A stretch of DNA of 64,000 nt from Desulfobacterales bacterium (GCA_046483495.1 JAWODC010000001.1:1-64000); one strand, 5' to 3'. Positions 14,388 through 37,016 are shown, counted from the first letter of the stretch. Made by a program: numbers and translations. The notes: generated by a model from the sequence alone, not told the origin.

Positions 14388-15824
14388 TTATGATTCAGAA
14401 GTATTTCTCCTTAAAAAAAGATTTTCCATACGTAAAGAAGGGGTCTGTAATAGAGCTGTTCGTTTTAGACTATCCGGATCAAAATCGATTTGTCGGTATC
14501 TGATCTTTGAATCGGGTTTGGCACTGGTGAATTTTCCGTTATTTCTAATCACAAGGCCATCTTTGATCAAACACCAGCAGTTGGAGAGCGCCTCGACTGT
14601 TTGAGCGGCAGACATATTCGGTTTAAGATCATACACGGCGATATTGGCTGCCGCACCCACTTTTAAATGTCCAAGATCATCAAGACCGAGTTGAGAAGCA
14701 GGTCCCAGGCGCGTAAAACGCGCAATATCGAATAAATCAAATTCTCGGCCATCGAGGACGTTATCGATCGATTCCGGACGCTGAGCTTTATTTATCAGCC
14801 ATGATACAACAAGGGGGATCCGGTCCATATATCCCATAGGGGGTGAAATCGAAGAGAGAGAAATCCCGCCTGAATTACCGCACCTATTCATCGTAATCCA
14901 TCCGATTTGCGATAAATCGCTCATAATTTCAATTTTACGCATTCTGTACTGCAGTGGGTAAGCGTTTTGAATGCCCGCATCGATTGAAAATGTACCGGGC
15001 AAATATTCATCTGTGCATGAAACATCAAGAAATTTTCGGTTATGATTGAGCCCGAGCGATGCTTTACCGCCGGAGTTAAGAAAGCATTCCATATTTTCCA
15101 GGGAATTTTCCGATTCGAAAGTATCGGCCAAACAGGAAATGACAAAGCGTTCCGCCATCGGAATAGTATTTTCCAGCAAAGAGGGAACTCCCCAAAGGGC
15201 TAATGGAAAAACATCGGGGTCATCTATCTCGGAAAGAAATTCAAACGTCTTTTTAGTGCTGATGTTTTTCTGGATGTAATAGGGCTGTTTATGTCTGAGG
15301 AACGGAAAAGTAATGAACAATCCGATGGCTCCGGTCAGGTGGATCAGCGCTCGAATTTCATCACAAAACCCGTTTACATTTTTTGATTTGATGTTTTTCC
15401 CCATATCCCTGAAGTCAAGCGAGATATTAAAGGACTTATCAACATACGGTATTTGGTTAAGCGTCCGTTGCACATCGTGGGCCATGAGCAACGAGGTAAA
15501 CGGATGATGAACGTGGACATATCCCATTCGGGAGAATGCAGTGCCGATATTTACCGGACTGGGAATCCCTTTATCCAAGAGCGGGGCAAACTGCTGTCCG
15601 GGAAAGGCGAGATGGCAGTTTGGATCTATACCCCCAGCCATTGCGATTCTTTCCTCAAGGTCGATAACCATATCGGGATTATCAATAGGCGGACATATTA
15701 CGCCATCGGTCATATGAATATTCCTGAGTTCACCATTCCAATCCTGGGCGGGATCGTACACTCTGGCGTTTCGAATGCAAATTTTTGGTCTAATTTCCAT
15801 GCGTACACGAATTGTGGGGTTCAA
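14388..15824 (-). CDS. fwdA: Formylmethanofuran dehydrogenase subunit A-like amidohydrolase, metal ligands largely lost
   Basis: IRNARVYDP, AGGIDPNCH, FSRMGY..IPYVDK, FDIARFTRLGPA..LGHLKVGAAANIAVYD align to FwdA; HxH reads NCH and the carbamylated-Lys position reads F. Confidence 0.8.
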   Translation of the reverse strand: MNPTIRVRMEIRPKICIRNARVYDPAQDWNGELRNIHMTDGVICPPIDNPDMVIDLEERIAMAGGIDPNCHLAFPGQQFAPLLDKGIPSPVNIGTAFSRMGYVHVHHPFTSLLMAHDVQRTLNQIPYVDKSFNISLDFRDMGKNIKSKNVNGFCDEIRALIHLTGAIGLFITFPFLRHKQPYYIQKNISTKKTFEFLSEIDDPDVFPLALWGVPSLLENTIPMAERFVISCLADTFESENSLENMECFLNSGGKASLGLNHNRKFLDVSCTDEYLPGTFSIDAGIQNAYPLQYRMRKIEIMSDLSQIGWITMNRCGNSGGISLSSISPPMGYMDRIPLVVSWLINKAQRPESIDNVLDGREFDLFDIARFTRLGPASQLGLDDLGHLKVGAAANIAVYDLKPNMSAAQTVEALSNCWCLIKDGLVIRNNGKFTSAKPDSKIRYRQIDFDPDSLKRTALLQTPSLRMENLFLRRNTSES

Positions 15825-17149
15825 TCGATTCTGTTTAAAAGTTCCTTTAAAACGAAGGCCCCCGAAGGATAGGCCTCTACATGAAGCCCTTCAATTTTTT
15901 CAGTTAAGAGAGGGAGCCCTTCCGCTCTAAAAAATATCCCGCCCGTCTCGACACCCGGCAACGATAAAGGTATTGAAACACAGGCACTTGCGTACGGTTC
16001 CTGTTTGAAATGATTCAGAACGATGAGCTTCTTTTCAGAAAAAATTTCCGGCGGCAATATCCGATTCGCTCCTTCCGGACCCGATTCCACCATTAAAACA
16101 CATCCTGAAATTTCCGCCGCGGATTTCAATGCGTCAACGGTGTCGGTTTCGGTAAGGGTCCCTGAGTAGTCGAATCCGCCGCATACATTGTGGTGTTCAA
16201 GTGATATGCGTTTAAAACCTTCTATGTTGGCCCCTGTACGCGACAGCGGTAAAATCACCGCTCTTTTACGGCCTGATAGGTTTACGTTTGCCGCCCATTC
16301 AAATAAAGAGTTCAGGCCATCCATGGCTGTTTTCTCCGCATCGACGAATACGGCTATATAGGATGCCCGCTGTAGAGAATTGATCAGTAAGGGAAAATCA
16401 CGATGATCATACGGCTCCGCCTGCGGCGGTGTCATTAGAGCTTTTAAAAAGCGGCTGTCATCACAAGATTTTAACATGAAAAACTGTTGGCAAAGCGGTT
16501 CGATTATCATTTTTTGGTCTGCAACGCCAATTAATGTGCGATCACTGTTGCCTCTTTCCGTATAACGCCCTCGGGGAAAATAGGAATAACGAGAAAGGTG
16601 TCTGTGATGTGTATCCAACGGATCGGCTCGCCAAAAAATCACGGCATCGGCTCTGTCTCTGATTTCATCGAGCAGGGCTGTTGCCCACCCGTACGTTTTT
16701 GCGCATCGATAAAATCGGTTTATTCCCGTCACACCCCACGGCATCCAAATGCCGTTTAGCCTTTCCGCGAGCTTCCGGGATTCTACAATGGCATTTTCAT
16801 CCAATGCATCCGCCCCCAGAATAAGCGGCGCTTTACCGGTTTTGAGCAGCTCTGCCGCAGCATTCAGATTGTGATCCAGAGCATGGGAAGAAAGTGGAAC
16901 TACACGATCTTCAGCAGAAATCGTACGAATTCGTTTCATTGCGATTTCACACAAATTCAAGGTCCTGACAAGCCGCCCGTCCTTTACATAATATGAAATA
17001 TCGTCACAAAGACAGCTGCAGCCGGAGCATACCTTGGAGTGGCATGCCAGATCATAATCATCGAATTCATTCTGCTTAACAACCGGATCTTGAATCGTAC
17101 CATTTTCTACCATCTCAAGGTTTTCTTTTGTAAACTTTTGGATGCTCAT
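15821..17149 (-). CDS. fwdB: Formylmethanofuran dehydrogenase subunit B-like protein lacking the Mo/W-ligating Cys
   Basis: VCSGCSCLCDDI..NLC FeS motif; LDEIRDRADAVIFW..HRHLSRYSYFPRG...ERG..DRTLI is an FwdB signature; no CHG motif. Confidence 0.85.
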   Translation of the reverse strand: MSIQKFTKENLEMVENGTIQDPVVKQNEFDDYDLACHSKVCSGCSCLCDDISYYVKDGRLVRTLNLCEIAMKRIRTISAEDRVVPLSSHALDHNLNAAAELLKTGKAPLILGADALDENAIVESRKLAERLNGIWMPWGVTGINRFYRCAKTYGWATALLDEIRDRADAVIFWRADPLDTHHRHLSRYSYFPRGRYTERGNSDRTLIGVADQKMIIEPLCQQFFMLKSCDDSRFLKALMTPPQAEPYDHRDFPLLINSLQRASYIAVFVDAEKTAMDGLNSLFEWAANVNLSGRKRAVILPLSRTGANIEGFKRISLEHHNVCGGFDYSGTLTETDTVDALKSAAEISGCVLMVESGPEGANRILPPEIFSEKKLIVLNHFKQEPYASACVSIPLSLPGVETGGIFFRAEGLPLLTEKIEGLHVEAYPSGAFVLKELLNRID

Positions 17150-17299
17150 GAATGGATTTTGTATTTTGGTTATTTTTGCAATACTGGAGTAGACGCCGTT
17201 TAATTGGATTGGTTTTTTTCATCCGAGGCCGGTATATGCCGTCATACATATGCCTGCCAGGCAGAGGAGCCGCACTTTTACTTACGGCCGGAAAACGGT

Positions 17300-17761
17300 T
17301 TATACAAGTTCCATTGCATCGGTGGGGCAATAATCGGCGCAGGCTTTACAAGGAGGTGCAGAGGGTATCGCCCTGTTGCAAAGCTCAGGATGAACCAGAA
17401 TAATCCGTGCATCGACAATCTGCATAACGACAATATCGTCCCAAGCCGGCCCTTTTCCAAGGGTCACTTCAAAATTGTTCGCTCCGTGAACGGGGCAAAC
17501 GTTAATACATATTCCGCACCCGATACACCGGTCTTGATCCACTATCAGGCCGGTAAGTTCGTTCTTTATTCCGTCTCCAAGCAAATCTTTCAAGTATTTC
17601 TTATTTTCGGCAAACTCCGGTTCAGAAAGGGTCGGGCAATCTTCGGGTCTCACGTCCCTTGACAAAAGGTAACCGGCGAATTTGATGCAATTCATTCCGC
17701 ATTCCCCACAGTTTGTCTTGGGAAGGTATTCATATATATCGTACATGCTTTTTTGAGACAT
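17300..17761 (-). CDS. fwdG: FwdG-like ferredoxin with N-terminal AcsC/CdhE/RnfB-type FeS domain
   Basis: IYEYLPKTNCGECG..C..FA..L...CP domain plus CIGCGICINVCPV..GKGP..VMQIVD..PELC..CKACADYCP (the GKGP insert is typical of FwdG). Confidence 0.75.
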   Translation of the reverse strand: MSQKSMYDIYEYLPKTNCGECGMNCIKFAGYLLSRDVRPEDCPTLSEPEFAENKKYLKDLLGDGIKNELTGLIVDQDRCIGCGICINVCPVHGANNFEVTLGKGPAWDDIVVMQIVDARIILVHPELCNRAIPSAPPCKACADYCPTDAMELV

Positions 17762-17778
17762 GGAAATTTTGTTTCTAT

Positions 17779-18327
17779 TTATTCAAACTCATCGGAAATT
17801 AGTCTTTTGGTTGCTTTATTTGCAATGAAACCGGAAAAGCCGACCATATTCGGATTCGAAAAATAATGCTTGAATTCCTCGTTTCTCGGCCATCCGATGA
17901 GGCAGTCGACCTTTTCTTTTTCCGGATTCACCAGCCAGAGCTGAAAAAGGTGGTCTTTAACCGGAAAGAACCATTCCTCTTTATCAATCAGGAATTCAAT
18001 AAGATAATGCTCCGAAACAGGCGGTAGGGCCAGAACGTAATCAATCGTATTTTGTCGAAAGCATTTTGCCGCAGCGAGTTCCCGGAAACCCTCGACGGCA
18101 TCGTTTACCCCTTCACGGACCACAAAAATAATTTCATCTTTTATTTTATTGTTCTTGCGAACAGCCCTGATATCGGGCTTCATAAAGCCGATGGGTTTTT
18201 CAGGGACCAGTTTATAGCCGGCATAATCCAGGAACCATCTCAACGTATTAATGATCTGATGCCTGTTATAAAGAGGTATTTCATCATATTTTCTGAACCA
18301 GCGCTGGTCGTTTTCTTCTGTTTTCAT
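17779..18327 (-). CDS. Conserved hypothetical protein, possible restriction-endonuclease-like fold; paralogue of 27199..27960
   Basis: Clean ORF with GAGG RBS, tightly packed in the operon; FLDYAGY..KPDIRA..DYVLAL pattern. Confidence 0.65.
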   Translation of the reverse strand: MKTEENDQRWFRKYDEIPLYNRHQIINTLRWFLDYAGYKLVPEKPIGFMKPDIRAVRKNNKIKDEIIFVVREGVNDAVEGFRELAAAKCFRQNTIDYVLALPPVSEHYLIEFLIDKEEWFFPVKDHLFQLWLVNPEKEKVDCLIGWPRNEEFKHYFSNPNMVGFSGFIANKATKRLISDEFE

Positions 18328-18368
18328 GCGCGCTTCCTCGATTAAGCCTTTTTACTGCCTGTCGGCAA

Positions 18369-19742
18369 TCAGATATTTTCCTCACCAGGCCATTCTTCAT
18401 TAGGACCGGGTATCTTCAGAGGGACCGGTTCGCCCTCTTTCCAGAACTCCTTGATGATCGGGTGCTCAACCCTCTTGAGAAACTCTTTTATTTCATTTGG
18501 TTCAATGCTTACTTCTTCCGTAGCGATTTTGTCGTATATCTCTTCAGGGATGCAGTCGGCCAACAACACCTTGAATTCTTTAGGCATCCAAACAACTCTT
18601 TTCCAGCCCCCGTCTCCCTGGAGGAATTTTTTGGATTTCGGCGTCCTTGCGGAAAGCCCCATCGATCCATGATTCTGGTTTCCACCACTCATGTATCCCG
18701 CCATTTTTGAAAAATTAATGCCAAGTGGCGTGTCGCCGGGATGGCGCCGGTCAACCAGGCCGATGCCGTCAAGTTCCGGTAAATAGAAAGCCGCCGCTTC
18801 AAAACACCCACAGTTGGTTTGCGGATATTTAAGGCAGCTGTAAAGATTGACTTTTCTAACCCGTCTCGAAGAGCGTTCATAAATCGCTTGGTCCACTCCG
18901 GTATACCGACCCATAACCGGATCGATACACTCTCCTTTAGGCATCATAAATGAATATCCATAAGGATCTATTTCTACAATTGCTTTGGCACCGAGATAGC
19001 TCATAATCCCGCAATAAGGGTTTCGCTGGGGAGTTATGCAGCATACATGGTTAGGCGCAAATGTTTGACAAAGTGTACATCCATAAAACGTGTCGACATC
19101 TTCATCTTCCACCCCCTGCAGTCGGGCATCATAGGCTTCCCACTCAGGACGAATAGTGCTGTCTAAGATATCTCGTATGAGTTCGACTCCACCGACCTCG
19201 GGCGTAGCGATAATGATTTGCACCTCCGCTTTTTCCACAAGCGGGAAATTGATTTTACAATTTCCGATAAGCGCCTGTCCCATTCGTTGCCATGAATTCT
19301 TGTGGGCACTTTCATTGTTCAGCCTGATCCAAATGGTATCGCGGGTATTGACAAGCATCCATCCTTCACCGTCCTCAAAAGGCTTGAATCCCGCCCGGAT
19401 CAGGGGATCGATGTGATCTTCGGTCAGCTGAGTTCCCCAGTACCTCATCCAGATGCCAAAAGGAAAAGATGAGCCGGGCTCTGTCTCGTCGATTTCCGGC
19501 CCGATCAGTTCAATGCGGCCGTCTTCAACATCTTCAGCGTTTTTCATCACGTCACAATGGATGTAACTTGTATATCCGTGCTTGGGCCCCCCTATTTCCA
19601 TGTACATATCGCTTTTTCGAACCTTTTGTCCCATCCAGCGCGGCGAAATTTCTATTTCAACACCGTCAAAGAGTTCGTCAAAATCGGTCGGTGCCTGATA
19701 AATTCGTCCTTTGGGTAGCTTTATGCCTGGTATTTCGATCAT
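18369..19742 (-). CDS. cdhC: Archaeal-type acetyl-CoA synthase beta subunit homologue (divergent)
   Basis: FYGCTLCQTFAPNHVC..PQR..CG and PQTNCGCFE carry all A-cluster Cys; GDGGWKRVVWMPK..KIATEE; lacks the bacterial AcsB N-terminal domain. Confidence 0.92.
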   Translation of the reverse strand: MIEIPGIKLPKGRIYQAPTDFDELFDGVEIEISPRWMGQKVRKSDMYMEIGGPKHGYTSYIHCDVMKNAEDVEDGRIELIGPEIDETEPGSSFPFGIWMRYWGTQLTEDHIDPLIRAGFKPFEDGEGWMLVNTRDTIWIRLNNESAHKNSWQRMGQALIGNCKINFPLVEKAEVQIIIATPEVGGVELIRDILDSTIRPEWEAYDARLQGVEDEDVDTFYGCTLCQTFAPNHVCCITPQRNPYCGIMSYLGAKAIVEIDPYGYSFMMPKGECIDPVMGRYTGVDQAIYERSSRRVRKVNLYSCLKYPQTNCGCFEAAAFYLPELDGIGLVDRRHPGDTPLGINFSKMAGYMSGGNQNHGSMGLSARTPKSKKFLQGDGGWKRVVWMPKEFKVLLADCIPEEIYDKIATEEVSIEPNEIKEFLKRVEHPIIKEFWKEGEPVPLKIPGPNEEWPGEENI

Positions 19743-19811
19743 GACTTCACCTCAAAATGATTAGTTAGAAACCATCTAACAGCGATTATATAAACTTGTT
19801 TTTCCGTGCAT

Positions 19812-20276
19812 TTATATCGTTTCAATGAAATTTTTAAGCCACTGCTCCCATTCATACAAGGTATCAGCTTCCACACATTTTTCAGCAGTTAATGACTTCC
19901 CCGGTCCCAGGTGAACACTTCCGACACCTTCCAAACCTGAAATCATTCCGTCTATAAATTCCGGCCGGTACCCGATATACAACAGGAGATCCGGACGCTT
20001 ATTTAGAATTGGATCCATCCATTCTCCTTTTAATGATGCCATTAGTTCACCAAGCCAGGCTTTTTGAATACTGATGGTCTGATGTTTTTCAAGCCCTTTG
20101 ATAGTATTCCCGGTTGCCGCTATAGGACATTTCATCTTTGTTGCGAGATCGGCGGCATACTCCAAGAGCTTTATGTTGCTCAATTTTATGTGGTCACATT
20201 CTTTTCCAGCCAAGATAAGAGGGTTTTTGTGTTGCCTGATGTACCGTATACAATCACTTAGATCGATTTGTTTCAT
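19812..20276 (-). CDS. cdhB: ACDS epsilon subunit homologue
   Basis: KNPLILAG..PIAATGN..EW......PDLLLYIG; position between cdhA and cdhC. Confidence 0.8.
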   Translation of the reverse strand: MKQIDLSDCIRYIRQHKNPLILAGKECDHIKLSNIKLLEYAADLATKMKCPIAATGNTIKGLEKHQTISIQKAWLGELMASLKGEWMDPILNKRPDLLLYIGYRPEFIDGMISGLEGVGSVHLGPGKSLTAEKCVEADTLYEWEQWLKNFIETI

Positions 20277-20278
20277 GT

Positions 20279-23005
20279 CTACTCCTTTACCGCCTCACGC
20301 ATTACCAATCTTTTGATAAGAGTAGCGTAGGCCCCCTGTTTGATCCCATAATTTTCGGTGTAATCTTCCAGTGAAACCATATTCCCTGAACGGTCCTTAA
20401 CTTTGTTTACCTGTGTGCGTTCGATTTCCCATCCGTATTCTTCCCTCAAAATCTTCAGAAGCCGCATCCGCTTCATGACATGCAATTCAAGAGGGCTTCT
20501 GACAAAGTAGGTCCAGTCATCCGGCAAATGACCGAAATATTTCTCGTGAATTTCGGTGTAATTATCGATGACGGAAAGCCTTGGGTCACGCAAATTGCAG
20601 GCCAGTGCAAACAGTTTCATCGTCATTGTAAGTGCTTCTTCCTTGGTTTCAACGGGGTAAATACCATGCATGGGGGAGGGATCAATCTCTTTTAGGTCTC
20701 CTGTTACACCATCGTATATGGTCCAGGTCGATCGGTCATATTTGTTGCCCACCAATGATCGAAACGTCTCAAGGCCGTTGGGCCCAACGACTACCTGTGC
20801 ACCCATTCTGACGAATGACGACGCCTTGGCAAGCATCTTATCCGAAGCCGCCCCCCAGATGATAACGACAAAGGGAGCGCGGTTCATACTGTAATCCGCC
20901 GGTTGCTCCAGGTTGCCTTTAATCGAAACCCCTCCTCCCAGCAGCGCGAACTTTGATAAAGATCCAAGAATATGGGAATCAGCGGTACATCCGCCGCAGT
21001 TAACAAAACCCTTTAGAGTAGCCATTGCCAAATATTTTTCCGGAAATGACTTTTCCGACTTTTCATCAATAATCCTTGAAACGTCTGCAGCGGCACACCC
21101 GGCAGTCATGACCACGCAGTTTCTATCCAGCAGCTCCTTGGCCATAAAAGCCATTTCATCATCCGTACCCGGATACCTGCCGCAGCCTAAGAGAACGGCC
21201 ATTCCGGGACCATTGCCGCCCAATACAAGTCCAAATGTAAGATCGCGGAATTCCAAATGGCTCAGGGGGCCTCTTCCCGGTCGCATCCTGAATGCATCTT
21301 TGCTTATTGCTTCTGCATTTGCCGCCAATATCAGATCGATAATGGGAATATTTTCCGGGCAAACGTCCTCGCACTTGCCGCAGAAAAAGCAAGATTTGTA
21401 AATATCTTGAAAAGTGAAGCCCTCCTCATCCTTCATTGCCGTACTGATCTGAAGGGAATTCGGGCAGGCATGAAAACACCTGTCACATGCTGTACACCGC
21501 TCCTTTTCAAACTCCAGTTCCTCTAACTTTAAAATAGTTCCCATTTTGCCGGCAAAATTTTTAAAATACACGGCAATAACGTTTGCGGCTTTTTCATACG
21601 AGCGAACGAGTACGGCTTCTCTATTATTCAGGCGGTTGCAGATTTCTTCCTCCGTTTCCTCTGAAAGGTCCGGCGCATCGAGGCACGTTGCGGAACCGGC
21701 GGCCAGTAAGGGAATCCCCGCTTTTTTCGCCTGTCCTGCAAGATCGATTGGGAAACAACTTTCAGTGGCGACAATCAAGTCCGCAATACCGGACCTAATG
21801 GCTTTGATCGCTTTGCCTGTGGACGTCAAAACCTTGCCTTCCGGATACATCCGGACGAGTTCATGGCCTGCATTTCCGATGCCGGTGATCTCTATTTTCT
21901 TTTCTATCCCTTCTTCTTCCAATACCCCTACGGTATGGAATATCGGCATGATATTATCCCCAAAAAAAGCAAGCACGGGCTTGCTCCTGTCGACCGTGCC
22001 CATACCGACAGGCGTCCTGGCTGGAGGATAATTTGCAACATCAGCCACACCCATGTCGCCTGTGGATAGAAATCCGAAACAGCAGATCTTGACCATTTCC
22101 TCGACTTCTGTTGCAAGGGCGAATATAGATCCCAGATGGAGAGAGCGAGCCTCCAGCTCCATCGGATTGCCGTTTTTCTGTTCAAGAACGGCCAATTGCT
22201 CGACAAGCTGTGATTCACCATATTCAAGGACCCCGTCCATTTCCGCCAGATTTTTAGGGTAAAACCCTGTAAGCAGGGCGATATTGCAGGTTGGATAGGC
22301 AATGGATCGACCAAGATCGATCTCCTTCTCAGGCCCAAGCGCAGCAATGGCCTCGTCTAAAACCCCGCGGGCGGACGCAAGAGCTTTGGCAGTCGCCGAG
22401 ACATGGTCTTTCAGGGTTTTCGATGCCTGAACGATATCACTTGCCTGTTTTCTTTTCCCGTGCTCGATAACATATTCCGGACTTGTATATAAAGGGCGAT
22501 ATCGGTTAAGCAGGACCTGGTCCCATTCGCTCAAATCACCTGCCTTTGGGAATGGAATAATTTTTGTACCGTATTGTCTTACCCGGGATTCATTGTAATC
22601 GGTCTTAAGAATTTTCTTTACTAATTCTTCCTTCCCGCGTATATCCGGCGTTATATCCGTCAAATCCAGTTCGTAACTCCCTACCGTTGCGGTAATATCG
22701 CCTTTTCCCGGCATTTTGAATTTTTTCAGACGGTCTTTAACAGATTCCGCATCCTCAGCAACAGCTGCATGCTCCTCTTCTTCAAAAAAATCGGTTTCTG
22801 CCAAACATCTGGCACAAACCGTAATTTTTTTCTGCGCTGGTCCGAGTACGCCTTCCGTACTCACGCCCCCCACTCTATGGGACGCGGAAATATCCTCGGT
22901 CTGCACGACCTGTTTGCACATTTCACATAGATTTATGCCGCAAATCGCGCATTTTTCGATTGCTTCATTTTCGTTACATGAACCGCAGATGATTTTTTCC
23001 GCCAT
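20279..23005 (-). CDS. cdhA: Archaeal-type CODH alpha subunit homologue, degenerate, with N-terminal Cys-rich finger
   Basis: LSEWDQVLLNRY.P.Y, GMGTVDRSKPV, two ferredoxin motifs (CTACDRCFHACP, CFFCGKCEDVCP), RPGRGP, LGC, AGC, NCGGC..SHI, WGAASDK, Y.E.H.KYFG.LPDDW..FVR. Confidence 0.88.
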   Translation of the reverse strand: MAEKIICGSCNENEAIEKCAICGINLCEMCKQVVQTEDISASHRVGGVSTEGVLGPAQKKITVCARCLAETDFFEEEEHAAVAEDAESVKDRLKKFKMPGKGDITATVGSYELDLTDITPDIRGKEELVKKILKTDYNESRVRQYGTKIIPFPKAGDLSEWDQVLLNRYRPLYTSPEYVIEHGKRKQASDIVQASKTLKDHVSATAKALASARGVLDEAIAALGPEKEIDLGRSIAYPTCNIALLTGFYPKNLAEMDGVLEYGESQLVEQLAVLEQKNGNPMELEARSLHLGSIFALATEVEEMVKICCFGFLSTGDMGVADVANYPPARTPVGMGTVDRSKPVLAFFGDNIMPIFHTVGVLEEEGIEKKIEITGIGNAGHELVRMYPEGKVLTSTGKAIKAIRSGIADLIVATESCFPIDLAGQAKKAGIPLLAAGSATCLDAPDLSEETEEEICNRLNNREAVLVRSYEKAANVIAVYFKNFAGKMGTILKLEELEFEKERCTACDRCFHACPNSLQISTAMKDEEGFTFQDIYKSCFFCGKCEDVCPENIPIIDLILAANAEAISKDAFRMRPGRGPLSHLEFRDLTFGLVLGGNGPGMAVLLGCGRYPGTDDEMAFMAKELLDRNCVVMTAGCAAADVSRIIDEKSEKSFPEKYLAMATLKGFVNCGGCTADSHILGSLSKFALLGGGVSIKGNLEQPADYSMNRAPFVVIIWGAASDKMLAKASSFVRMGAQVVVGPNGLETFRSLVGNKYDRSTWTIYDGVTGDLKEIDPSPMHGIYPVETKEEALTMTMKLFALACNLRDPRLSVIDNYTEIHEKYFGHLPDDWTYFVRSPLELHVMKRMRLLKILREEYGWEIERTQVNKVKDRSGNMVSLEDYTENYGIKQGAYATLIKRLVMREAVKE

Positions 23006-23077
23006 TTTCGTCTCCTTGTCTTTCGTGCATTATATTTACCAGGCAAACCGTTTTAAAACGGATTCTTGCTTTCTGTT

Positions 23078-25276
23078 TCAGTGTGCCGCCGCATGCACTT
23101 CACCGACGAGGGCGTCTTTCATGCAGGTTGTATCTTCAATTACGGTTATCCTTCCCCGGCCGATACGGGCTATTTTGGTCATTAGATCGGGATTTGCGTT
23201 TTCCTCATTGATGCAGATGCAGGAAATGGTAATTCCTTTCCTGACTGTTTTTGCGGCTTCCTTTATGGCAAAACCGGCAGGGGATGGATGCGGTGCAGTC
23301 GCATCGCCGTCTGATACGAGAATGATATGCTGCTTGCTGTGGCTTTTAGAATGACGTGCAAATAAACCTCTTGCGGTGAGCAGGCCGTATCCGATATTTG
23401 TAAATGCATTCTCCTGCAGCTCGAGATCAAGCACCCTCTCCGTCAGCATGAACGTGTTCTTTGTAAGGTCAGATATAACCCTGGCCATATTTGAAAACGT
23501 TATCAGGCCTACCCTGTCTCCATAATTCGAAGCTGCGAGTGCCAGCGCGATTACGCTTTCCTTACCGTACCAGACCTTTTCAAGCTGATCCATTGTTCCC
23601 GACATGTCCAAACACAAAAGTATATCCATTCGGTTCCGAATATCCCTTTTCATAATCCTGATATCTTCCCGCGCAATTTCCCTGTGCCTGTTCCGAATGG
23701 CTCTGCGTATAGTCCTGTTCAGGGACACATCTCTATATTTATCCCCAAAACGCCACGAACGGGTCCCGACAATCCGCCCCTCCCCTATATTGCTTTTTGT
23801 GCCGGATTTATGCATCCCCTGCCCGATGATAGTTTCGGAAAACCCAAGTCTCGGAGCAAGCTTCTCCAGCAGCAGCATAATACCGCGCATCGAGAGCGTG
23901 TACCCTCTCTCGGAACGGGATAAAATCTGATGGTCCTCCAGCATATCAAGTGTTTTAATTAGAGCCTCCTCTTCAAGCTTGGCCCTGAGCTCGGCGTTGA
24001 GTTTTAGCTGCTTTTCCTGAACGTCATCAATTTCGGATAAGAGTTCGAGGGTCAGTTCCTCGCCGAGATACGAACTACTGTGTTTATCGAGAAGCCGGTC
24101 GACCATCCTTCCGTGTACATTAGCCAATTCGGAATCCGGAAAGCGCTTGATTCTCTTCAAAAGGATATCGAACATTCCAAATTTCAAGGGTTTCCTGAAT
24201 TGATCTTTTCGGGCTATTTCATCTACGATAGCCAGCATTTTTTCCTTCGAAAGAGGCATAACGTCTTCGCTTTTTTCCGAAAGGCCGAGTGCATGCATTA
24301 CAATCTCTTGTATTATCTCGCTTGCCCGTCGATTCGTTTCGGCATGCGGCGCCACCTTGACCCGGTGCGGCAGCGATATCATCGATGCTGCCTGAAGAAT
24401 ACCATTCGGGTCGTCTTCGCCGTTCAATCGGGTGTAAGCGGATGCCAATTCGCCGAACCGGATGGTCCCCCTGATGGAAATGCCCCTTGAAAGGTCTTCA
24501 TGACGACGTGTATTCGCAACCACTTCTATTCCGGGCTCTACCCATGCAAAGTCATTCGATCCGGCAAAAATTTTCTTTTCGAATACCGGATCGACCTTAT
24601 TTGAAAGCGAAATGGAATCAAAATGATCTGATAGGTCGGCCGGGAAAAGGGCCAATGTGCCCCTTGCGCCGGTGGCAATTATCATCGTGTCAAGAGGAAA
24701 AGCCTCATCGAATTTCCCAATAGTAATCACATCCCCCGAAAGGCCGGCTAAGAGCGTGTTGAGGACCCTCTCCGGCATTCGGTCCATGAAATCGAGTATG
24801 AGAATACGCCCATTAGCCTTTAACATTTTACCTGGAACAAATGCCCTGAGATCAAAGATTCCGTATTCAAATGCCGTTTGAGGATCAAGATCACCGATAA
24901 GATCGGCAACGGCCAAATCGGAACTTCCGGACACCCTGACAAACCTGTCTTTTCCCTTCAACGTCTTCGAATACAACGGTTCATCGTTTGTTAATCGGCG
25001 GAGGCACCATGGACATTCAGGTGAATCGATGCGGCAATTGACAGGGCATCCGTCTACAACCTTCCTGTCCTGCAACAGATTTACAACCCGCTCAGCAAGA
25101 GTTGTTTTCCCGATACCGGGCTGCCCTTCCAATAAAACGTGGTGCCCGCATATTAAGGAGGCCATAAAGTTTTTTTTGTGATCCTCGGGGAGGGACAATC
25201 CCTTAAAGAGCGCATCGCGAATGTTATTGTCCCCTGCCGAGAGGATCGAATTGTTTATTTCATCGGTTATCTTCAT
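23078..25276 (-). CDS. ChlD/BchD-like AAA+ ATPase (degenerate Walker B) fused to C-terminal VWA domain
   Basis: HVLLEGQPGIGKT, DGCPVNC....CPWC, PGKMLKANGRILILDFMDR; VWA LCLDMSGTM..TN...GL..ILVSDG. Confidence 0.85.
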   Translation of the reverse strand: MKITDEINNSILSAGDNNIRDALFKGLSLPEDHKKNFMASLICGHHVLLEGQPGIGKTTLAERVVNLLQDRKVVDGCPVNCRIDSPECPWCLRRLTNDEPLYSKTLKGKDRFVRVSGSSDLAVADLIGDLDPQTAFEYGIFDLRAFVPGKMLKANGRILILDFMDRMPERVLNTLLAGLSGDVITIGKFDEAFPLDTMIIATGARGTLALFPADLSDHFDSISLSNKVDPVFEKKIFAGSNDFAWVEPGIEVVANTRRHEDLSRGISIRGTIRFGELASAYTRLNGEDDPNGILQAASMISLPHRVKVAPHAETNRRASEIIQEIVMHALGLSEKSEDVMPLSKEKMLAIVDEIARKDQFRKPLKFGMFDILLKRIKRFPDSELANVHGRMVDRLLDKHSSSYLGEELTLELLSEIDDVQEKQLKLNAELRAKLEEEALIKTLDMLEDHQILSRSERGYTLSMRGIMLLLEKLAPRLGFSETIIGQGMHKSGTKSNIGEGRIVGTRSWRFGDKYRDVSLNRTIRRAIRNRHREIAREDIRIMKRDIRNRMDILLCLDMSGTMDQLEKVWYGKESVIALALAASNYGDRVGLITFSNMARVISDLTKNTFMLTERVLDLELQENAFTNIGYGLLTARGLFARHSKSHSKQHIILVSDGDATAPHPSPAGFAIKEAAKTVRKGITISCICINEENANPDLMTKIARIGRGRITVIEDTTCMKDALVGEVHAAAH

Positions 25277-25304
25277 GTTGAGCCTTTGAGCGTTCAGGAT
25301 TCAG

Positions 25305-26138
25305 CTAAATTTCCAGGCTTCTTATTTCACTCATTTTTTCTTTTCGGATATCGTCGATCCTGGCAAAAGCATCCTTTGCCGCCGTCATTGTCCCGGAATT
25401 TTTCGGCAGCTGCCATATTGGCTTTGCCAGGGCATCCATTTCAGCCACATCGGGGTCAAAGGGCAAAAAGCCAAGCAATTCCAAGCCTGCTTCATCGGCG
25501 TATTTCTTGATTATATCCCTTGTTTTATCGGCTATCTTATTGGCCAGTACCATCATACGGCCAAACTCGATGTTTAATTCCTCGGCGATTTTTTTTACAC
25601 GCGCCGCCGTCGCCATTCCCTTTGCCGACCCATCGCTTACGATAAGCATAAGATCCACATTCCTGGCGGTTCTTCTGGAGATATGCTCAAGTCCGGCTTC
25701 CGAGTCAATGACAATGGTGGAATAATTCTTTGCCTGGCTGTCGATAATGGAACGAAGAATGTGATTAATATGGCAATAGCATCCTTCCCCTTCACTTCGT
25801 CCCATTACCAAAAGATCGAAGTGCCTGTCTTCTACAATAGCCTCCATAATGCCTTTTTCAAGGACCTTGTCGACAGTGACATTCCGGTTTTCAGTCTGTC
25901 GCGTCTTAAACTTAAGAAGTGATTCACGTATATCGCCTACCGAATGCACTGCTGCTACCCCAAGCGCTTCCGGAAGGTTTGAGTCGGGATCTGCATCGAT
26001 GGCCAGAACAGGTCCGAAATCTACGAAATATCTGACCAGCAGGGAACTGATCAGCGTCTTGCCGGTACCTCCTTTTCCGGCGACAACAATAGTAAATCCC
26101 GTCAGTTTATCCCTTGTTGGCATCACCTTATTCTCCAT
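25305..26138 (-). CDS. cooC: CODH/ACS nickel-insertion ATPase (CooC/AcsF family)
   Basis: AGKGGTGKT, AIDADPDSNL, MGRSEGEGCYC, DSEAGLEHISR. Confidence 0.92.
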   Translation of the reverse strand: MENKVMPTRDKLTGFTIVVAGKGGTGKTLISSLLVRYFVDFGPVLAIDADPDSNLPEALGVAAVHSVGDIRESLLKFKTRQTENRNVTVDKVLEKGIMEAIVEDRHFDLLVMGRSEGEGCYCHINHILRSIIDSQAKNYSTIVIDSEAGLEHISRRTARNVDLMLIVSDGSAKGMATAARVKKIAEELNIEFGRMMVLANKIADKTRDIIKKYADEAGLELLGFLPFDPDVAEMDALAKPIWQLPKNSGTMTAAKDAFARIDDIRKEKMSEIRSLEI

Positions 26139-27165
26139 TCATAATATCTTTGACAATTTCTTTTACGAGCCCCATACTATCGTCGTAGTATCTGGATTCC
26201 GGACTCGTTTTGACACGACCTGCGATCGTAGATATCGCTGCCTCTTTTATATGATCGATCGACACCTCATCTTTTTTCTCAAGCCACGCATATGCTTGGA
26301 TTTTCTCATATAATGCCAGTCCGGCCCGGACAGATGCCCCCTGGTCCATATCCTTGTTCCATGGCTCCTCACGTGTCGACCGAATAATCTTTATAACCAG
26401 ATCGAGCATCTGTTCCGGAACCTGAACGTTATCGATTCGGCTGCCATATTTCTCAACGATATTTTTCTCGATTTCAGGTGTTTCCGGGTAATCCATAGTT
26501 ACAACGTCAAACCGGTCCAACAGGACGTCGGAAAGCTCCTCGACACCGGCATGTTCACGTGGATTCATGGTGGCAATCATCAGAAAGTTTGCCGCATAAT
26601 CGAGATCATAGGGACCGATTGTAGCTGTACGCTCCTCCAGAACCTGCAAGAGGGCATTCTGAAGCTTTTCGGGAATCCGATTGAGTTCGTCGAAAAACAC
26701 AATTCCCCTGTTGCCCTTGAGCAGCTTTCCAGGCGTAAATGCCCGCCAGTCATGGGGTCCATATTTGAAGGCCATACTAGGGTCTACATCCCCCAAGAGG
26801 TCTTCTGCCGTCAAATCAGGGCTCCCCTGTATGCGGACGAACCGCTGTGCGCCGGAAATTAACGTTTTTATAAGCGCTTTGCTTTCTTTTTTCCTTGCAA
26901 GGCAGGAAGGACAAACGGGATCCTCCGGCCGGCAGTGAAAAGGGCATCCGTCAACAGCCTCGACAGGAGGCAAAATTGCAGCAAGCTGCCTGGCCAGTGT
27001 GGTTTTGCCCACTCCGGGCGGGCCCTCGATCAAAACGTGGTGACCGGAAAGAACCGAAGCAAGAATTCCCTTTTTCGTTACGATTTGTCCCATAATGTTG
27101 TTTAGAGGATCGTCTCCCCTTTCCAAGAAACTTTCTATCGTCTCTTTCAATCCCTCTACGACCAT
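26128..27165 (-). CDS. ChlI/MoxR-like AAA+ ATPase
   Basis: HVLIEGPPGVGKT, DGCPFHC.P..PVCPSC, RIQGSPDLTAEDLLG, FFDELNR, IATMNP, LLDRF. Confidence 0.9.
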   Translation of the reverse strand: MVVEGLKETIESFLERGDDPLNNIMGQIVTKKGILASVLSGHHVLIEGPPGVGKTTLARQLAAILPPVEAVDGCPFHCRPEDPVCPSCLARKKESKALIKTLISGAQRFVRIQGSPDLTAEDLLGDVDPSMAFKYGPHDWRAFTPGKLLKGNRGIVFFDELNRIPEKLQNALLQVLEERTATIGPYDLDYAANFLMIATMNPREHAGVEELSDVLLDRFDVVTMDYPETPEIEKNIVEKYGSRIDNVQVPEQMLDLVIKIIRSTREEPWNKDMDQGASVRAGLALYEKIQAYAWLEKKDEVSIDHIKEAAISTIAGRVKTSPESRYYDDSMGLVKEIVKDIMNGE

Positions 27166-27198
27166 ATTTTTTTCCTTTTTCTGTTTTTCCCCGAATTA

Positions 27199-27960
27199 TC
27201 ACTCTCGAGCCATTACATACTGCATTCGAATATCCTGCCACTGTCTTGAGGAGGCCGAAAAATAGCGCACCAATCCGTGAACCTGCGGATAAACGGTAAA
27301 CGGATATATCCGGTTTGGATCCGAATTATCAACACCGTAAACACCAATCCGATGTGATGCCAATTTATCCATATTGGCCATTACCCATGACTCCTGAACG
27401 GACAAAGGTATACCGAACGGTTCCTGAAAGGCTGCAACCACCAATCCATAATCATGCGTGTGTTTGTGCTCTTTGCGAAACTCGATAAGCTTCCTTGCCT
27501 TTTCCGATGCTTTTTCATTGCAGCATGGTGTAATCATAAGAAAGAACCGGCGCTTTTTGATAAAACCAAATAGATCGGTTCCGGGATAATCGCCAATTTC
27601 ATACCCGTTATCCAGGAGCAGCTCGGAAAAGGCGGTTCTTATATATGTCACTGCATCATTTTCATCGTCAAAATCAAACCTGTTGCGAACCGGAAGAATA
27701 TGGCTCGTCTTCGTCGGATTCACCCATGGATCTAAAATCTTGGGCCTCTCGCGTTCGATCTCACCTGCCAGATAACATATATCCTTGACTATTGTGTTTT
27801 CATGAATGAGCTCAACCGACAGCAGAACCTTCACCTCTTTTGAGGCATCTTTTTTTTCCAGTATTCGAATATCCTTGACCCGCCAATCTTCTGGATAAGG
27901 GAGTACGATCGACATTTTCCGATCAGAAAAAGCTTTATTCACATCACGAACCGTGGTCAT
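27199..27960 (-). CDS. Conserved hypothetical protein; C-terminal domain paralogous to 17779..18327
   Basis: 253-aa ORF, first gene of the cluster; LLLDNGY..TDLFG..DYGLVV pattern. Confidence 0.65.
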   Translation of the reverse strand: MTTVRDVNKAFSDRKMSIVLPYPEDWRVKDIRILEKKDASKEVKVLLSVELIHENTIVKDICYLAGEIERERPKILDPWVNPTKTSHILPVRNRFDFDDENDAVTYIRTAFSELLLDNGYEIGDYPGTDLFGFIKKRRFFLMITPCCNEKASEKARKLIEFRKEHKHTHDYGLVVAAFQEPFGIPLSVQESWVMANMDKLASHRIGVYGVDNSDPNRIYPFTVYPQVHGLVRYFSASSRQWQDIRMQYVMARE

Positions 27961-28044: not shown

Positions 28045-28683
28045 TTAATTTTCATCGGGAAGCACAGATTCAATGCTTTTTTGATCATTCATATGAAGAA
28101 TTTTCATAAACTGATCCACCATTTCATTAATACTAAACTTTCCGTCCTTTTGGTACCAGGTCAGAGACCAGTTGCAAATCCCATAAATGACCATGGCAAA
28201 AACCCTGATATTGATCCCTGAAATAGCTTCAGGATGCTCTTGACGAATTTGTACAAGTATTTTTTCTATAAGTTTCAGATAGTTTCGTTCCGTTTGCTTC
28301 ATAAGAGCCTTGTTTTCATCGACAAGATATTTACTCTCGCTGAAAAACACCTTAAGGGCGTCTCTCTTTTCCGGCAACTGCCCCAAATAGGAATAAAACA
28401 GGTATCCTAATTTTTGTATTCCATCATAGGAATCGTTCTCAACTATTCGTTCCAGTTCATTGATAAAACCCGGAGTCAATTCGGCAAGCATTGTCCGAAG
28501 AATGTCATCCTTATTTTTAAAGTAATAAAACAGCGTACTGCTTTGAATGCCCACCTCTTCTGAAATCATTCGAATCGAAGTGCCATGATACCCCTTCTCA
28601 ACCATCAGCTTCGCTGTTGAATCGAGAATATTCTTATAGGTATTGTTGTGGTTGATGTCTCCGGACTGTTTCATTTTTTCCAT
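28045..28683 (-). CDS. TetR/AcrR family regulator (PaaR/KstR2-like)
   Basis: KGYHGTSIRMISEEVGI..STLFYYFKNKDDIL; C-terminal GICNWSLTWYQKDG.FS. Confidence 0.92.
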   Translation of the reverse strand: MEKMKQSGDINHNNTYKNILDSTAKLMVEKGYHGTSIRMISEEVGIQSSTLFYYFKNKDDILRTMLAELTPGFINELERIVENDSYDGIQKLGYLFYSYLGQLPEKRDALKVFFSESKYLVDENKALMKQTERNYLKLIEKILVQIRQEHPEAISGINIRVFAMVIYGICNWSLTWYQKDGKFSINEMVDQFMKILHMNDQKSIESVLPDEN

Positions 28684-36902: not shown

Positions 36903-37016
36903 AGTGCCATTTATCTTGGCACCGGCAAATTCAGGCTTGTTCCGGGGACTGATACACTGGACGATGATGCCATCCTCGAATCCCGAAAGCTCGCGGAAAG
37001 GCTAAACGGTATTTAA
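36903..37016 (+). pseudogene. About 110-bp remnant of a second fwdB-like gene
   Basis: TGKFRLVPGTDTLDDDAILESRKLAERLNGI* vs TGKAPLILGADALDENAIVESRKLAERLNGIW in 15821..17149; DNA similarity to the reverse complement of about 16748-16860. Confidence 0.8.

Follow-up and report, generated by a model that had tools for sequence, protein, structure and literature searches.

A conserved acetyl-CoA synthase-like system with degenerate CODH and Fwd homologues in a Desulfobacterales genome

What is an acetyl-CoA synthase (ACS) for when the CO dehydrogenase (CODH) encoded beside it has lost metal ligands and the corrinoid iron-sulfur protein (CFeSP) that should bring it methyl groups is missing from its gene cluster? 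The question is posed by positions 14388..27960 of a 64,000-nucleotide stretch of a Desulfobacterales bacterium (GCA_046483495.1, JAWODC010000001.1:1-64000; hereafter the window), which an earlier note, made from the sequence alone, had singled out as 11 co-oriented, tightly spaced genes for a candidate new nickel-enzyme system. That layout is borne out. Eleven open reading frames (ORFs), all on the minus strand and with intergenic gaps of -11 to 150 bp, run in the order orph1, ChlI-like AAA+, cooC, ChlD-like AAA+/VWA, cdhA, cdhB, cdhC, orph2, fdx (FeS-FwdG), fwdB and fwdA, and 0/11 have an internal stop, in agreement with their description as full-length and free of frameshifts. Also as described, the cluster holds no cdhD/cdhE, methyltransferase, fwdC, fwdD or ftr gene. 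The divergent subunits and their genes are written here with a prefixed d (dCdhA, dCdhC, dFwdB and dFwdA). The same note took the cluster for a repurposed complex and not a Wood-Ljungdahl module, a view supported by ligand losses shared among orthologues, by low ratios of non-synonymous to synonymous substitution (dN/dS) and by a separate CdhC clade; as far as sequence allows us to judge, this is indeed a repurposed complex under selection, and not a Wood-Ljungdahl module.

The A-cluster subunit and its lid

The ACS-beta homologue dCdhC (18369..19742, minus strand) matches TIGR00316 with 422 bits against a cut-off of 356 and is the only Cdh or Fwd subunit to pass, the family matches of CdhA, CdhB, FwdA and FwdB all falling under their cut-offs. 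Its A-cluster ligands are complete at all seven positions (C222, C225, C234, C244 and C311-G312-C313), as the earlier note had held of the cysteines, and they are kept in 70/70 rows of its clade, with the two Ni-bridging cysteines encoded as TGA in 5 rows. In acetyl-CoA-bound ACS (C. autoethanogenum numbering) Trp405 stacks on the adenine, Arg383 lies near the acyl group, and His386 touches the acetyl methyl and may deprotonate CoA (bioRxiv 10.1101/2024.08.05.606187; here and below, statements on published papers refer to the portions of each that were available to us). The first two of these CoA anchors are retained as W138 in 70/70 and R116 in 68/70 rows. The position of His386, occupied by His in 7/7 canonical rows, is F119 in the window and His in only 1/70 rows of the clade, with 12 different replacements. 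The Asn-Tyr that follows it and a second His, (near-)invariant in canonical rows, are hypervariable in the clade, and the equivalent of Phe512 may be F, I, L, N or V, the window having F228. Absent, too, is the C-terminal tether that canonical CdhC possesses (as at locus L037). With these residues dCdhC is predicted to be able to bind both a Ni-Ni-[4Fe-4S] A-cluster and CoA, its acyl pocket is rebuilt, and the pattern would suit a single CoA-dependent mechanism that has diversified across a range of acyl groups. An earlier suggestion of chemistry on non-acetyl acyl-CoA finds support in the same pocket residues.

Phylogeny sets this family apart. In a quick IQ-TREE analysis with midpoint rooting, 77 de-duplicated CdhC rows (from 210) divide into 70 divergent ones and a thin sample of 7 canonical ones, with a value of 100 in the Shimodaira-Hasegawa-like approximate likelihood ratio test (SH-aLRT). 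The earlier note had envisaged that dCdhC might group with canonical ACS and work with partners encoded in trans; it groups with neither canonical CdhC nor AcsB and lies in a clade of its own, although a CFeSP is encoded in trans. Among the members of this clade are records named Alkanophaga, Methanophagales/ANME-1, Chloroflexota, Syntrophales and Thermodesulfobacteriota, and the dCdhC and dCdhA trees agree in placing the window copy as sister to archaeal Syntropharchaeia sequences. The host genome, which is 97% complete, has the separate canonical acs operon that the earlier note thought worth looking for: it lies complete on another contig (C45:17769-25135), together with two more prismane-family genes in the genome, so that CFeSP, CODH and canonical ACS are all encoded in trans, the only host copy of CdhD/CdhE being at that operon. 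Full-length canonical AcsB is likewise present in 18/22 bacterial carriers of the system, and the dCdhC system does not replace canonical ACS.

The CODH-alpha homologue dCdhA (20279..23005, minus strand) is assigned to its family by similarity (8riu/9c0q at E<=5e-100; Foldseek top hits to archaeal CODH, from an AlphaFold model of pLDDT 63, low around the lid, that served only as a fold check). For this protein, FwdB and FwdA the earlier note had claimed the loss of the defining ligands. The losses are real, but CdhA keeps 4/6 ligands of the C-cluster (C417, C608, C637 and C673) and FwdB keeps its [4Fe-4S] cysteines. The C-cluster His of dCdhA has become D350 and the first Cys is lost (GNAGH), as in 27/27 rows of the dCdhA clade, all of which keep the last four Cys. 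Between these 27 rows and the canonical enzymes the split has an SH-aLRT of 100; 3/14 rows on the canonical side are degenerate as well. The catalytic Lys position (K723) is K in 22/24 and R in 2/24 homologues and is replaced in distant variants; the region of the catalytic (acid-base) His is replaced; the B/D-cluster cysteines are all gone from the window copy and its close family, with B-type Cys retained in most distant variants; and the window subfamily has gained an N-terminal 8-Cys finger. The E/F-cluster cysteines (C504, C507, C510, C514, C539, C542, C545 and C549) are invariant in 24/24. Compared with a CODH, dCdhA thus fails in the six-ligand C-cluster, the B/D-clusters and the acid-base residues and passes in the E/F-clusters, and it is predicted to be unable to make or oxidise CO by the known route.

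Why such a protein should be retained is suggested by its place in the complex. In archaeal acetyl-CoA decarbonylase/synthase (ACDS), the place of ACS domain A1 is taken by the second Rossmann fold of CdhA, and R500, L504, V507 and F601 form the CO alcove (PMC11474084), the CODH subunit capping the A-cluster (PMC11474084; PMC13370988). By alignment, the alcove residues correspond to R587, F591, V594 and G690 of dCdhA, each invariant in 24 homologues, and the capping helix (residues 574-601) is the most conserved part of the protein, with 23/28 columns invariant (n=24). The earlier description of a pseudo-CODH serving as an inert scaffold gives way here: dCdhA, with its capping helix conserved and its metal site rebuilt, is better read as a lid that structurally closes the A-cluster. 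The simplest reason for its retention would be that without this subunit ACS-beta is unable to close its active site, the site itself having been reshaped. The CdhB-like epsilon subunit (19812..20276, minus strand; TIGR00315 at E 7e-5, under the cut-off) lies 3' of dcdhA in most loci. A separate lineage from dCdhA, an archaeal-type CdhA of 29-33% identity, occurs in 22 genomes of the phylum, with complete canonical ligands in 9/9 inspected (L060-L068). Two further loci (L114, G536:C168; L115, G507:C129) carry tandem dcdhA-cdhB copies, apparently identical in L114, with orph2, radical SAM and 2-hydroxyacyl-CoA-dehydratase-like subunits; L114 additionally has HdrA, fdx, dfwdB and an intact-ligand fwdA, and no cdhC lies within either locus.

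Selection, distribution and TGA-bearing relatives

Had intact ligands been found in orthologues, with dN/dS near 1, neutral decay would be the natural explanation. The orthologues share the ligand losses, and median NG86 dN/dS, taken over non-independent pairs of orthologous loci with 0.05<dS<1.2 (from 8/66 for fwdA and fwdB up to 53/171 for cdhC; the window's own copy is not in the printed pairs), is 0.07-0.24 in all 11 genes, well below 1, so that neutral decay is rejected in favour of purifying selection. The lowest medians are those of cooC (0.068) and dcdhC (0.081), those of dfwdA and dfwdB being 0.23 and 0.24, and dCdhC is the most conserved product, with ~80% identity among orthologues.

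A protein search returned 28 matches, 26 of them dCdhA homologues of 58-69% identity. The synteny that the earlier note proposed to look for exists: the full 11-gene order recurs in 7/23 metagenome loci, the others being contiguous subsets, several of which reach the end of the fetched DNA, and in two more genomes with all eleven genes (G345 and G589). A survey of the phylum found the close form in 7/400 other genomes and a 35-40% identical form in 13 more, and one of the order a 36-43% form in 2/300 others, with a match in 0/5 genomes of the host family. This patchy occurrence, together with the lower G+C of the ~100 kb region around the cluster (43-51%, against 51% for the genome), suggests lateral transfer. 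The order of genes is shuffled in distant loci, which keep dCdhA, CdhB, dCdhC and CooC together with both ATPases and with orph1 or orph2; several dCdhC/dCdhA paralogues per genome occur. Across 79 Syntropharchaeia genomes dCdhA and dCdhC, often unlinked, are both found in 29, singly in 4 and not in 46, counts that are descriptive given that kin are not independent; ANME-1-like genomes have dCdhA and dCdhC only, almost always as a pair and usually alongside canonical CdhC. Two archaeal genomes (G689 and G690) carry the ChlD-like gene and orph2, and there dcdhA-cdhB-dcdhC-orph2 runs straight into a thiolase gene with a small partner that we take to be DUF35. Internal stops were flagged in four archaeal dCdhA matches, which we do not claim as decay. 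A close dcdhC orthologue (L101/L102; G589:C137:146932-148296) has one in-frame TGA at about codon 100-110, off the Cys-Gly-Cys, due to sequencing error or to its being a pseudogene.

A different use of TGA is seen at the metal site itself. In 11/23 genomes searched, TGA-GGN-TGA stands exactly at the Ni-bridging Cys-Gly-Cys of divergent cdhC, with the frame open to its normal end, and the same hairpin follows some 20-45 nt 3' of the motif in 11/11 of these and is absent from 4/4 Cys-coding controls. The codons probably specify selenocysteine, and such variants would fit a working catalytic site. SelA was found in 3/3 genomes tested, including two TGA carriers, and a selenocysteine tRNA above the gathering score in the host only and not in G124 or G270 (the same three being tested). 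One of the 11 cases is a 1.4-kb contig in an archaeal bin that may be misbinned, and the window dcdhC itself codes Cys. Full-text literature searches outside subscription journals and bioRxiv supplements found no description of a selenocysteine ACS, and the available part of a 2026 selenoproteome review mentions acetyl-CoA synthase solely under HgcA. The variant cluster of G124 (TGA-GGG-TGA; L005:11838-19995, L006:1-6053) follows immediately 3' of genes for a glycyl radical enzyme and the activase belonging to it, and is bordered on its far side by CoA transferases. The TGA-bearing dcdhA-cdhB-dcdhC locus of G563 is adjoined on its 5' side by a gene (L169:16-1932) that is presumably SelB.

Accessory proteins and catabolic surroundings

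The remaining genes of the cluster, all on the minus strand, fall into a maturation group, two small proteins and a part derived from Fwd. CooC (25305..26138), a nickel-insertion ATPase of CooC/AcsF type whose closest solved relative is 3kje (E 8e-25), has the deviant Walker A motif GKGGTGKT at 21 and GCYC at 119, so that the Ni-binding CYC is kept, as had been claimed. A ChlI/MoxR-like AAA+ ATPase (26128..27165; Pfam/NCBIfam matches), 57-83% identical across variants, has intact Walker A and B motifs (GPPGVGKT at 48, FFDELNR at 157), and a ChlD-like AAA+ domain with degenerate Walker B is fused to VWA (23078..25276; profile matches and motifs). As in ChlI/ChlD, an active AAA+ subunit and an inactive-AAA/VWA subunit thus stand beside a metalloenzyme; unlike ChlI/ChlD, they have no large porphyrin-binding partner of ChlH/CobN type in the cluster and score far under the chelatase cut-offs (84-104 bits against 467-779), and their client is presumptive. 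Other AAA+/VWA pairs that insert metal or reactivate metal sites are CoxD/CoxE and NorQ/NorD. The ChlD-like gene occurs in 21/22 bacterial carriers and 3/6 archaeal genomes tested, and orph2 in 22/22 bacterial carriers and the two archaeal genomes named above, all these genomes having been preselected for dCdhA or dCdhC and the orph2 control consisting of two non-carriers only.

The two proteins that the earlier note had called orphans are conserved members of the system, both probably with a PD-(D/E)xK-like fold. Orph1 (253 aa; 27199..27960) has orthologues of 53-73% identity in the same position and copies of 35-42% identity in distant variants; the weak PD-(D/E)xK-fold resemblance of its C-terminal part (Atlas template-modelling score, TM, <=0.49) is a lead only. 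Orph2 (182 aa; 17779..18327), a core member of probably degenerate PD-(D/E)xK-like fold, reaches TM 0.59 to a restriction-endonuclease-like Atlas cluster, and its predicted complex with dCdhC, folded without alignments, scored 0.00. The ferredoxin-like Fdx (17300..17761; 12 Cys) has at its N-terminus a [4Fe-4S] domain that resembles the one in RnfB or in the CFeSP large subunit (NF003195 at E 2e-12 for residues 4-60; RnfB at E 1e-7), fused to a FwdG-like 2[4Fe-4S] domain (5t5i_G E 1e-9). As the N-terminal domain of the CFeSP large subunit is predicted to touch ACS domain A3 (PMC13370988), Fdx may dock where CFeSP would, although RnfB-type domains score nearly equally and CFeSP-like docking is for that reason a lead.

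In dFwdB (15821..17149) the [4Fe-4S] cysteines are retained (C41, C44, C48 and C67) and the W/Mo ligand and catalytic His are gone (Cys/Sec118 to G142, His119 to I143), the site being lost also in the distant variant L165. The amidohydrolase-fold dFwdA (14388..15824; TTG start, with an ATG 8 codons in) has 478 aa against ~567 for solved FwdA and has lost 5/6 ligands of the binuclear site of 4 His, carboxy-Lys and Asp (N69, F170, W211, C231 and I326, with H71 kept); all six are present in 3/3 distant relatives aligned. Loss of the Fwd part is graded, from a FwdD-like gene with dead FwdB (L165), through dead FwdB with fully ligated FwdA (L107/L114) and FwdA (L115), to both dead in the window family and none at all in L005/L006, L163, L166 and the archaeal loci. 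Neither Ftr nor FwdC above cut-off was found in the host and four relatives (0/5 genomes each), and FwdD, for which no genome-wide search was made, is not in the window cluster. Since Fwd genes are missing from several related loci and more intact in others, this part is accessory and peripheral, which leaves the formyl-CoA or formate-channel role once suggested for it without specific support. A non-coding dfwdB-like remnant at 36903-37013 of the window (plus strand; 65% over 37 codons, 82.5% over 80 nt), between two unrelated genes, would be the trace of a deleted second copy or of a rearrangement.

Directly upstream of the cluster and co-oriented with it lies a TetR-family gene (28045..28683, minus strand; Pfam TetR_N/TetR_C_24), its probable regulator, a similar gene standing likewise 5' of the cluster in L029. 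Downstream, an acyl-CoA ligase gene (12429..13949, minus strand), with similar ones upstream of the cluster in L020 and L021, is a possible substrate-activating partner. The whole ~100-kb island is rich in acyl-CoA ligases, dehydrogenases, hydratases and AORs, with a B12 mutase (L159:13299-15449) and with ketosteroid-dehydrogenase-like and BaiCD-like flavoenzymes, steroid-type families scoring under cut-off. Across loci, acyl-CoA ligases, dehydrogenases and hydratases, thiolase-DUF35 pairs, mutases and AORs make up the context. Some 60 kb (window:28811-61853 plus L158-L159) encode six old-yellow-enzyme/BaiCD-like flavoproteins along with a pair of AORs, two molybdopterin oxidoreductases and two FAD proteins of ketosteroid-dehydrogenase-like type, a gene content suggestive of an anaerobic route for alicyclic acids, whether steroid-like or of another kind, in a host presumably of sulfate-reducer type. 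At window:1080-9511 lie three DUF1329 genes and one DUF1302 gene, like those beside the cluster in G345; such genes are typical of hydrophobic-substrate uptake. A second catabolic locus of the host (L162; G000:C56:1338-29438) combines a glycyl radical enzyme, B12 mutase, radical SAM, CoA transferase, carboxyltransferase and activase with MoxR-like AAA+, VWA, MoaD-like, CooC and 2-hydroxyacyl-CoA-dehydratase-like genes and a stand-alone protein resembling the ACS middle domain only. In Syntropharchaeia, an acyl-CoA dehydrogenase of the L152:9765-10949 type (72-94% identity) occurs in 30/79 genomes, of which 28/30 also have dCdhA/dCdhC. It is taken for a lineage marker, since it is absent from those two archaea whose gene set is fullest and its best host match is 37%.

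As to expression, 8 RNA runs cover 0.06-0.26 of the window, and four of them gave short low-depth contigs, also over non-cluster DNA (possibly DNA carry-over), and are not taken as evidence of expression; a promoter/terminator scan stayed near chance level. More can be said of Alkanophaga, for which two cdhC genes, OD814_000200 and OD815_001263, are listed in Supplementary Table 7 of PMC10322722. Their lengths, calculated from fragments and fragments per kilobase (FPK), are 1467 and 1458 nt, which fit, by length only, our Alkanophaga records P0082 (488 aa) and P0219 (485 aa). Each gene is transcribed in the cultures of its own active species, at FPK 607-757 and 261-555 respectively, a cdhA two locus tags away reaches similar levels, and the canonical cdhC genes stand at 634-1673 and 757-1210 (PMC10322722). 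The same paper calls the step from alkyl-coenzyme M (alkyl-CoM) to acyl-CoA, and the fate of propionyl-CoA, unresolved.

Proposed chemistry, its rivals and its meaning

With archaeal ACDS CdhABC (9c0s/9c0t, 3cf4, 8riu) the complex shares the alpha-epsilon-beta order, a two-domain ACS, the A-cluster ligands, R500 and the E/F clusters; lost in the window are CdhD/CdhE, the C-cluster His and first Cys, the catalytic His, the B/D clusters and the C-terminal tether; changed are alcove F601 to Gly, L504 to Phe and ACS His386 to Phe; and added are the AAA+/VWA pair and two unknown proteins. Similar, too, are the clade-A Ni-CODH groups A-4 and A-6 among bacterial Cdh, in which His and Cys1 are replaced (D and P in A-4, N and S in A-6) and activity is left open (PMC6344411). 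They too keep the last four Cys, lack the D-cluster and neighbour an ACS beta; compared by description only, dCdhA of the window differs in having D and N at His/Cys1, in keeping the Lys, and in its lost B-cluster and 8-Cys finger. Those groups are treated as Wood-Ljungdahl-associated, with no discussion of the ACS pocket and accessory genes in the available text (PMC6344411). A second printed description, the N-terminally extended ACS clade of Chloroflexota, Thermodesulfobacteriota, Myxococcota and archaea (PMC13370988), resembles our system in its two-domain ACS with neither prismane domain nor C-terminal extension and in its early-branching CdhA, and is very probably the same clade as dCdhC; there it is a phylogenetic remark to which no function is assigned, and ligand losses, pocket changes, selenocysteine and accessory genes go unmentioned in the part available. 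The nearest parallel to the Fwd part is Fhc of Methylorubrum extorquens (6s6y; PMC6926001), where a FwdB homologue without molybdopterin site serves as scaffold and FwdD is absent; unlike in the window, FhcB has lost the [4Fe-4S] domain whose Cys dFwdB keeps, FhcA is an active hydrolase, as dFwdA would not be, and our system has no counterparts of FhcC and Ftr. Nothing on the dCdhC/dCdhA clade was found in the available text of PMC9012536, PMC11543930 and PMC12289521, and the literature searches delimited above for selenocysteine ACS found no description of the cluster, of its function or of the pocket changes. We are dealing with a real, conserved and functionally undescribed ACS-like system from a clade already catalogued in print without a function, one whose dCdhA-CdhB-dCdhC complex appears to be of A-cluster-enzyme type, yet outside the ACDS, CODH and Fwd families by their defining features.

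That the complex has some non-canonical catalytic function seems probable. More specifically, though with confidence somewhat short of even, we propose that it is a second, corrinoid-independent A-cluster enzyme system that would decarbonylate or carbonylate non-acetyl acyl-CoA, with acyl groups larger than acetyl. In this scheme CooC and the AAA+/VWA pair would insert nickel or reactivate the site, and Fdx, together with the Fe-S sites left in dFwdB and dCdhA, would deliver the low-potential electrons that reductive activation requires. The neighbouring catabolic pathway would provide an acyl-CoA that adds to nickel, and the resulting acyl-Ni would interconvert with alkyl-Ni(CO) under the dCdhA lid; without a cobalamin acceptor the alkyl group would leave as alkene or alkane, or enter from one in reverse, and CO would be exchanged with the separate CO dehydrogenases of the host. 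The net reaction would be (de)carbonylation of acyl-CoA, probably at points that beta-oxidation cannot pass, as with propionyl, ring-bound or branched acyl groups. Several considerations weigh against this proposal. The evidence for it is at the level of sequence, and release of alkene or alkane from Ni-alkyl is drawn from general organonickel chemistry and from no enzyme. With CFeSP encoded in trans, methyl or alkyl transfer could still run through a corrinoid; loss of the CoA-deprotonating His could instead mean slowed or different chemistry; and with the B-cluster gone in the window subfamily, the rebuilt C-site is left without a known electron path. The partners are not constant either, the AAA+/VWA gene being found in 0/3 and orph2 in 0/5 ANME-1-like carriers tested and an Fe-S partner (Fdx, dFwdB) being missing from L005/L006, L163, L166, L108 and L109. 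In one archaeal genome a second copy is in fragments (L116), and the catabolic genes flanking the cluster include none shared by every locus, so that the context points to no single substrate.

The features that led us to this proposal can be read in other ways. An acyl-Ni might interconvert with an aldehyde by way of the Fe-S wire, or pass its acyl group to a thiol or amine, with no C-C cleavage and with dCdhA as a mere shield. Kept CoA anchors beside a varied acyl contact, the Fe-S sites of dCdhA, dFwdB and Fdx, the AOR genes common nearby, the intact FwdA amidohydrolase site of distant variants and the absence of a CO source or sink in cis would all suit such redox or acyl-transfer chemistry, for which simpler enzymes are, however, known; strict conservation of the CO-alcove helix is also easier to explain if CO is an intermediate, and we think this alternative unlikely. 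Loss of both C-cluster and CFeSP alongside retention of lid, alcove and CoA site would be explained by a B12-independent acyl-CoA carbon-skeleton isomerase, in which CO would stay caged under the lid while the alkyl-Ni shifts by beta-H elimination and re-insertion and is re-carbonylated, converting branched to linear acyl-CoA. Branched-chain and mutase genes nearby speak for it, but the island itself already encodes B12 mutases (L159:13299-15449) and no enzymatic precedent for a CO-retaining Ni acyl-CoA isomerase is known to us, which makes this an improbable solution.

More conventionally, dCdhC might be an ordinary ACS isoenzyme that takes methyl or larger alkyl groups from the host CFeSP in trans and uses free CO, with dCdhA only an A1-like cap. 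It does pass the cdhC equivalog cut-off and keeps the Phe512 equivalent in the window (F228), the host does have CFeSP and CODH, and incomplete Cdh types have been grouped with Wood-Ljungdahl contexts (PMC6344411); set against this, His386 is lost in 69/70 rows, the tether of canonical CdhC (L037) is missing, the enzyme would be redundant with canonical AcsB in 18/22 carriers, cdhD/cdhE were not recognised in the loci inspected and several paralogues occur per genome, so that we regard an isoenzyme as unlikely. Finally, with 3/4 enzyme homologues lacking catalytic ligands and with two PD-(D/E)xK-like proteins and an AAA+/VWA pair at hand, the complex could be imagined as a non-catalytic sensor of CO, nickel or acyl-CoA, or as a nickel store, whose output is formed by the nuclease-fold proteins and AAA+ ATPases. 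Probable selenocysteine at the Ni ligands (11 genomes), strict conservation of A-cluster and CoA anchors and a varied acyl pocket suggest catalysis, and a sensor or store is very improbable.

Our preferred reading, acyl-CoA (de)carbonylation at the A-cluster, has consequences that differ between lineages. To our knowledge the A-cluster is known for one reaction only, the synthesis or cleavage of acetyl-CoA, and the chemistry would be categorically new if assays bore the proposal out. In its most ambitious form, which we hold doubtful, dCdhA-CdhB-dCdhC would be the first known corrinoid-free A-cluster family to interconvert alkyl groups and acyl-CoAs by nickel carbonylation, with subfamilies, some of them selenium-ligated, for different substrates. 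If so, the orthologue in Ca. Alkanophaga, whose proteins are sister to the window subfamily, could supply the conversion of alkyl-CoM, including subterminal alkyl-CoM, to acyl-CoA, or dispose of propionyl-CoA, and in sulfate reducers the complex would take a carbonyl from, or add one to, acyl-CoAs whose beta-oxidation is blocked. Alkyl-CoM conversion as a universal role is rejected, the module not having been found in 46/79 Syntropharchaeia, including the acyl-CoA-dehydrogenase-rich G760-G763, and being present in bacteria as well. The complex is an assayable candidate for the open steps of archaeal alkane oxidation (PMC10322722), and a carbonylase for larger acyl groups would be of interest for biocatalysis. 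For genome interpretation, a Wood-Ljungdahl module may be wrongly suggested by cdhA/cdhC annotations in genomes of Desulfobacterota, Chloroflexota and ANME-1, and TGA-containing dcdhC members will be split by gene callers. More generally, the clade is widespread and under selection, has kept the A-cluster and CoA site, has diversified its acyl pocket and has given up the partners that make CO and donate methyl groups; all this points to a form of organonickel biochemistry, so far undescribed, in the anaerobic degradation of carbon.

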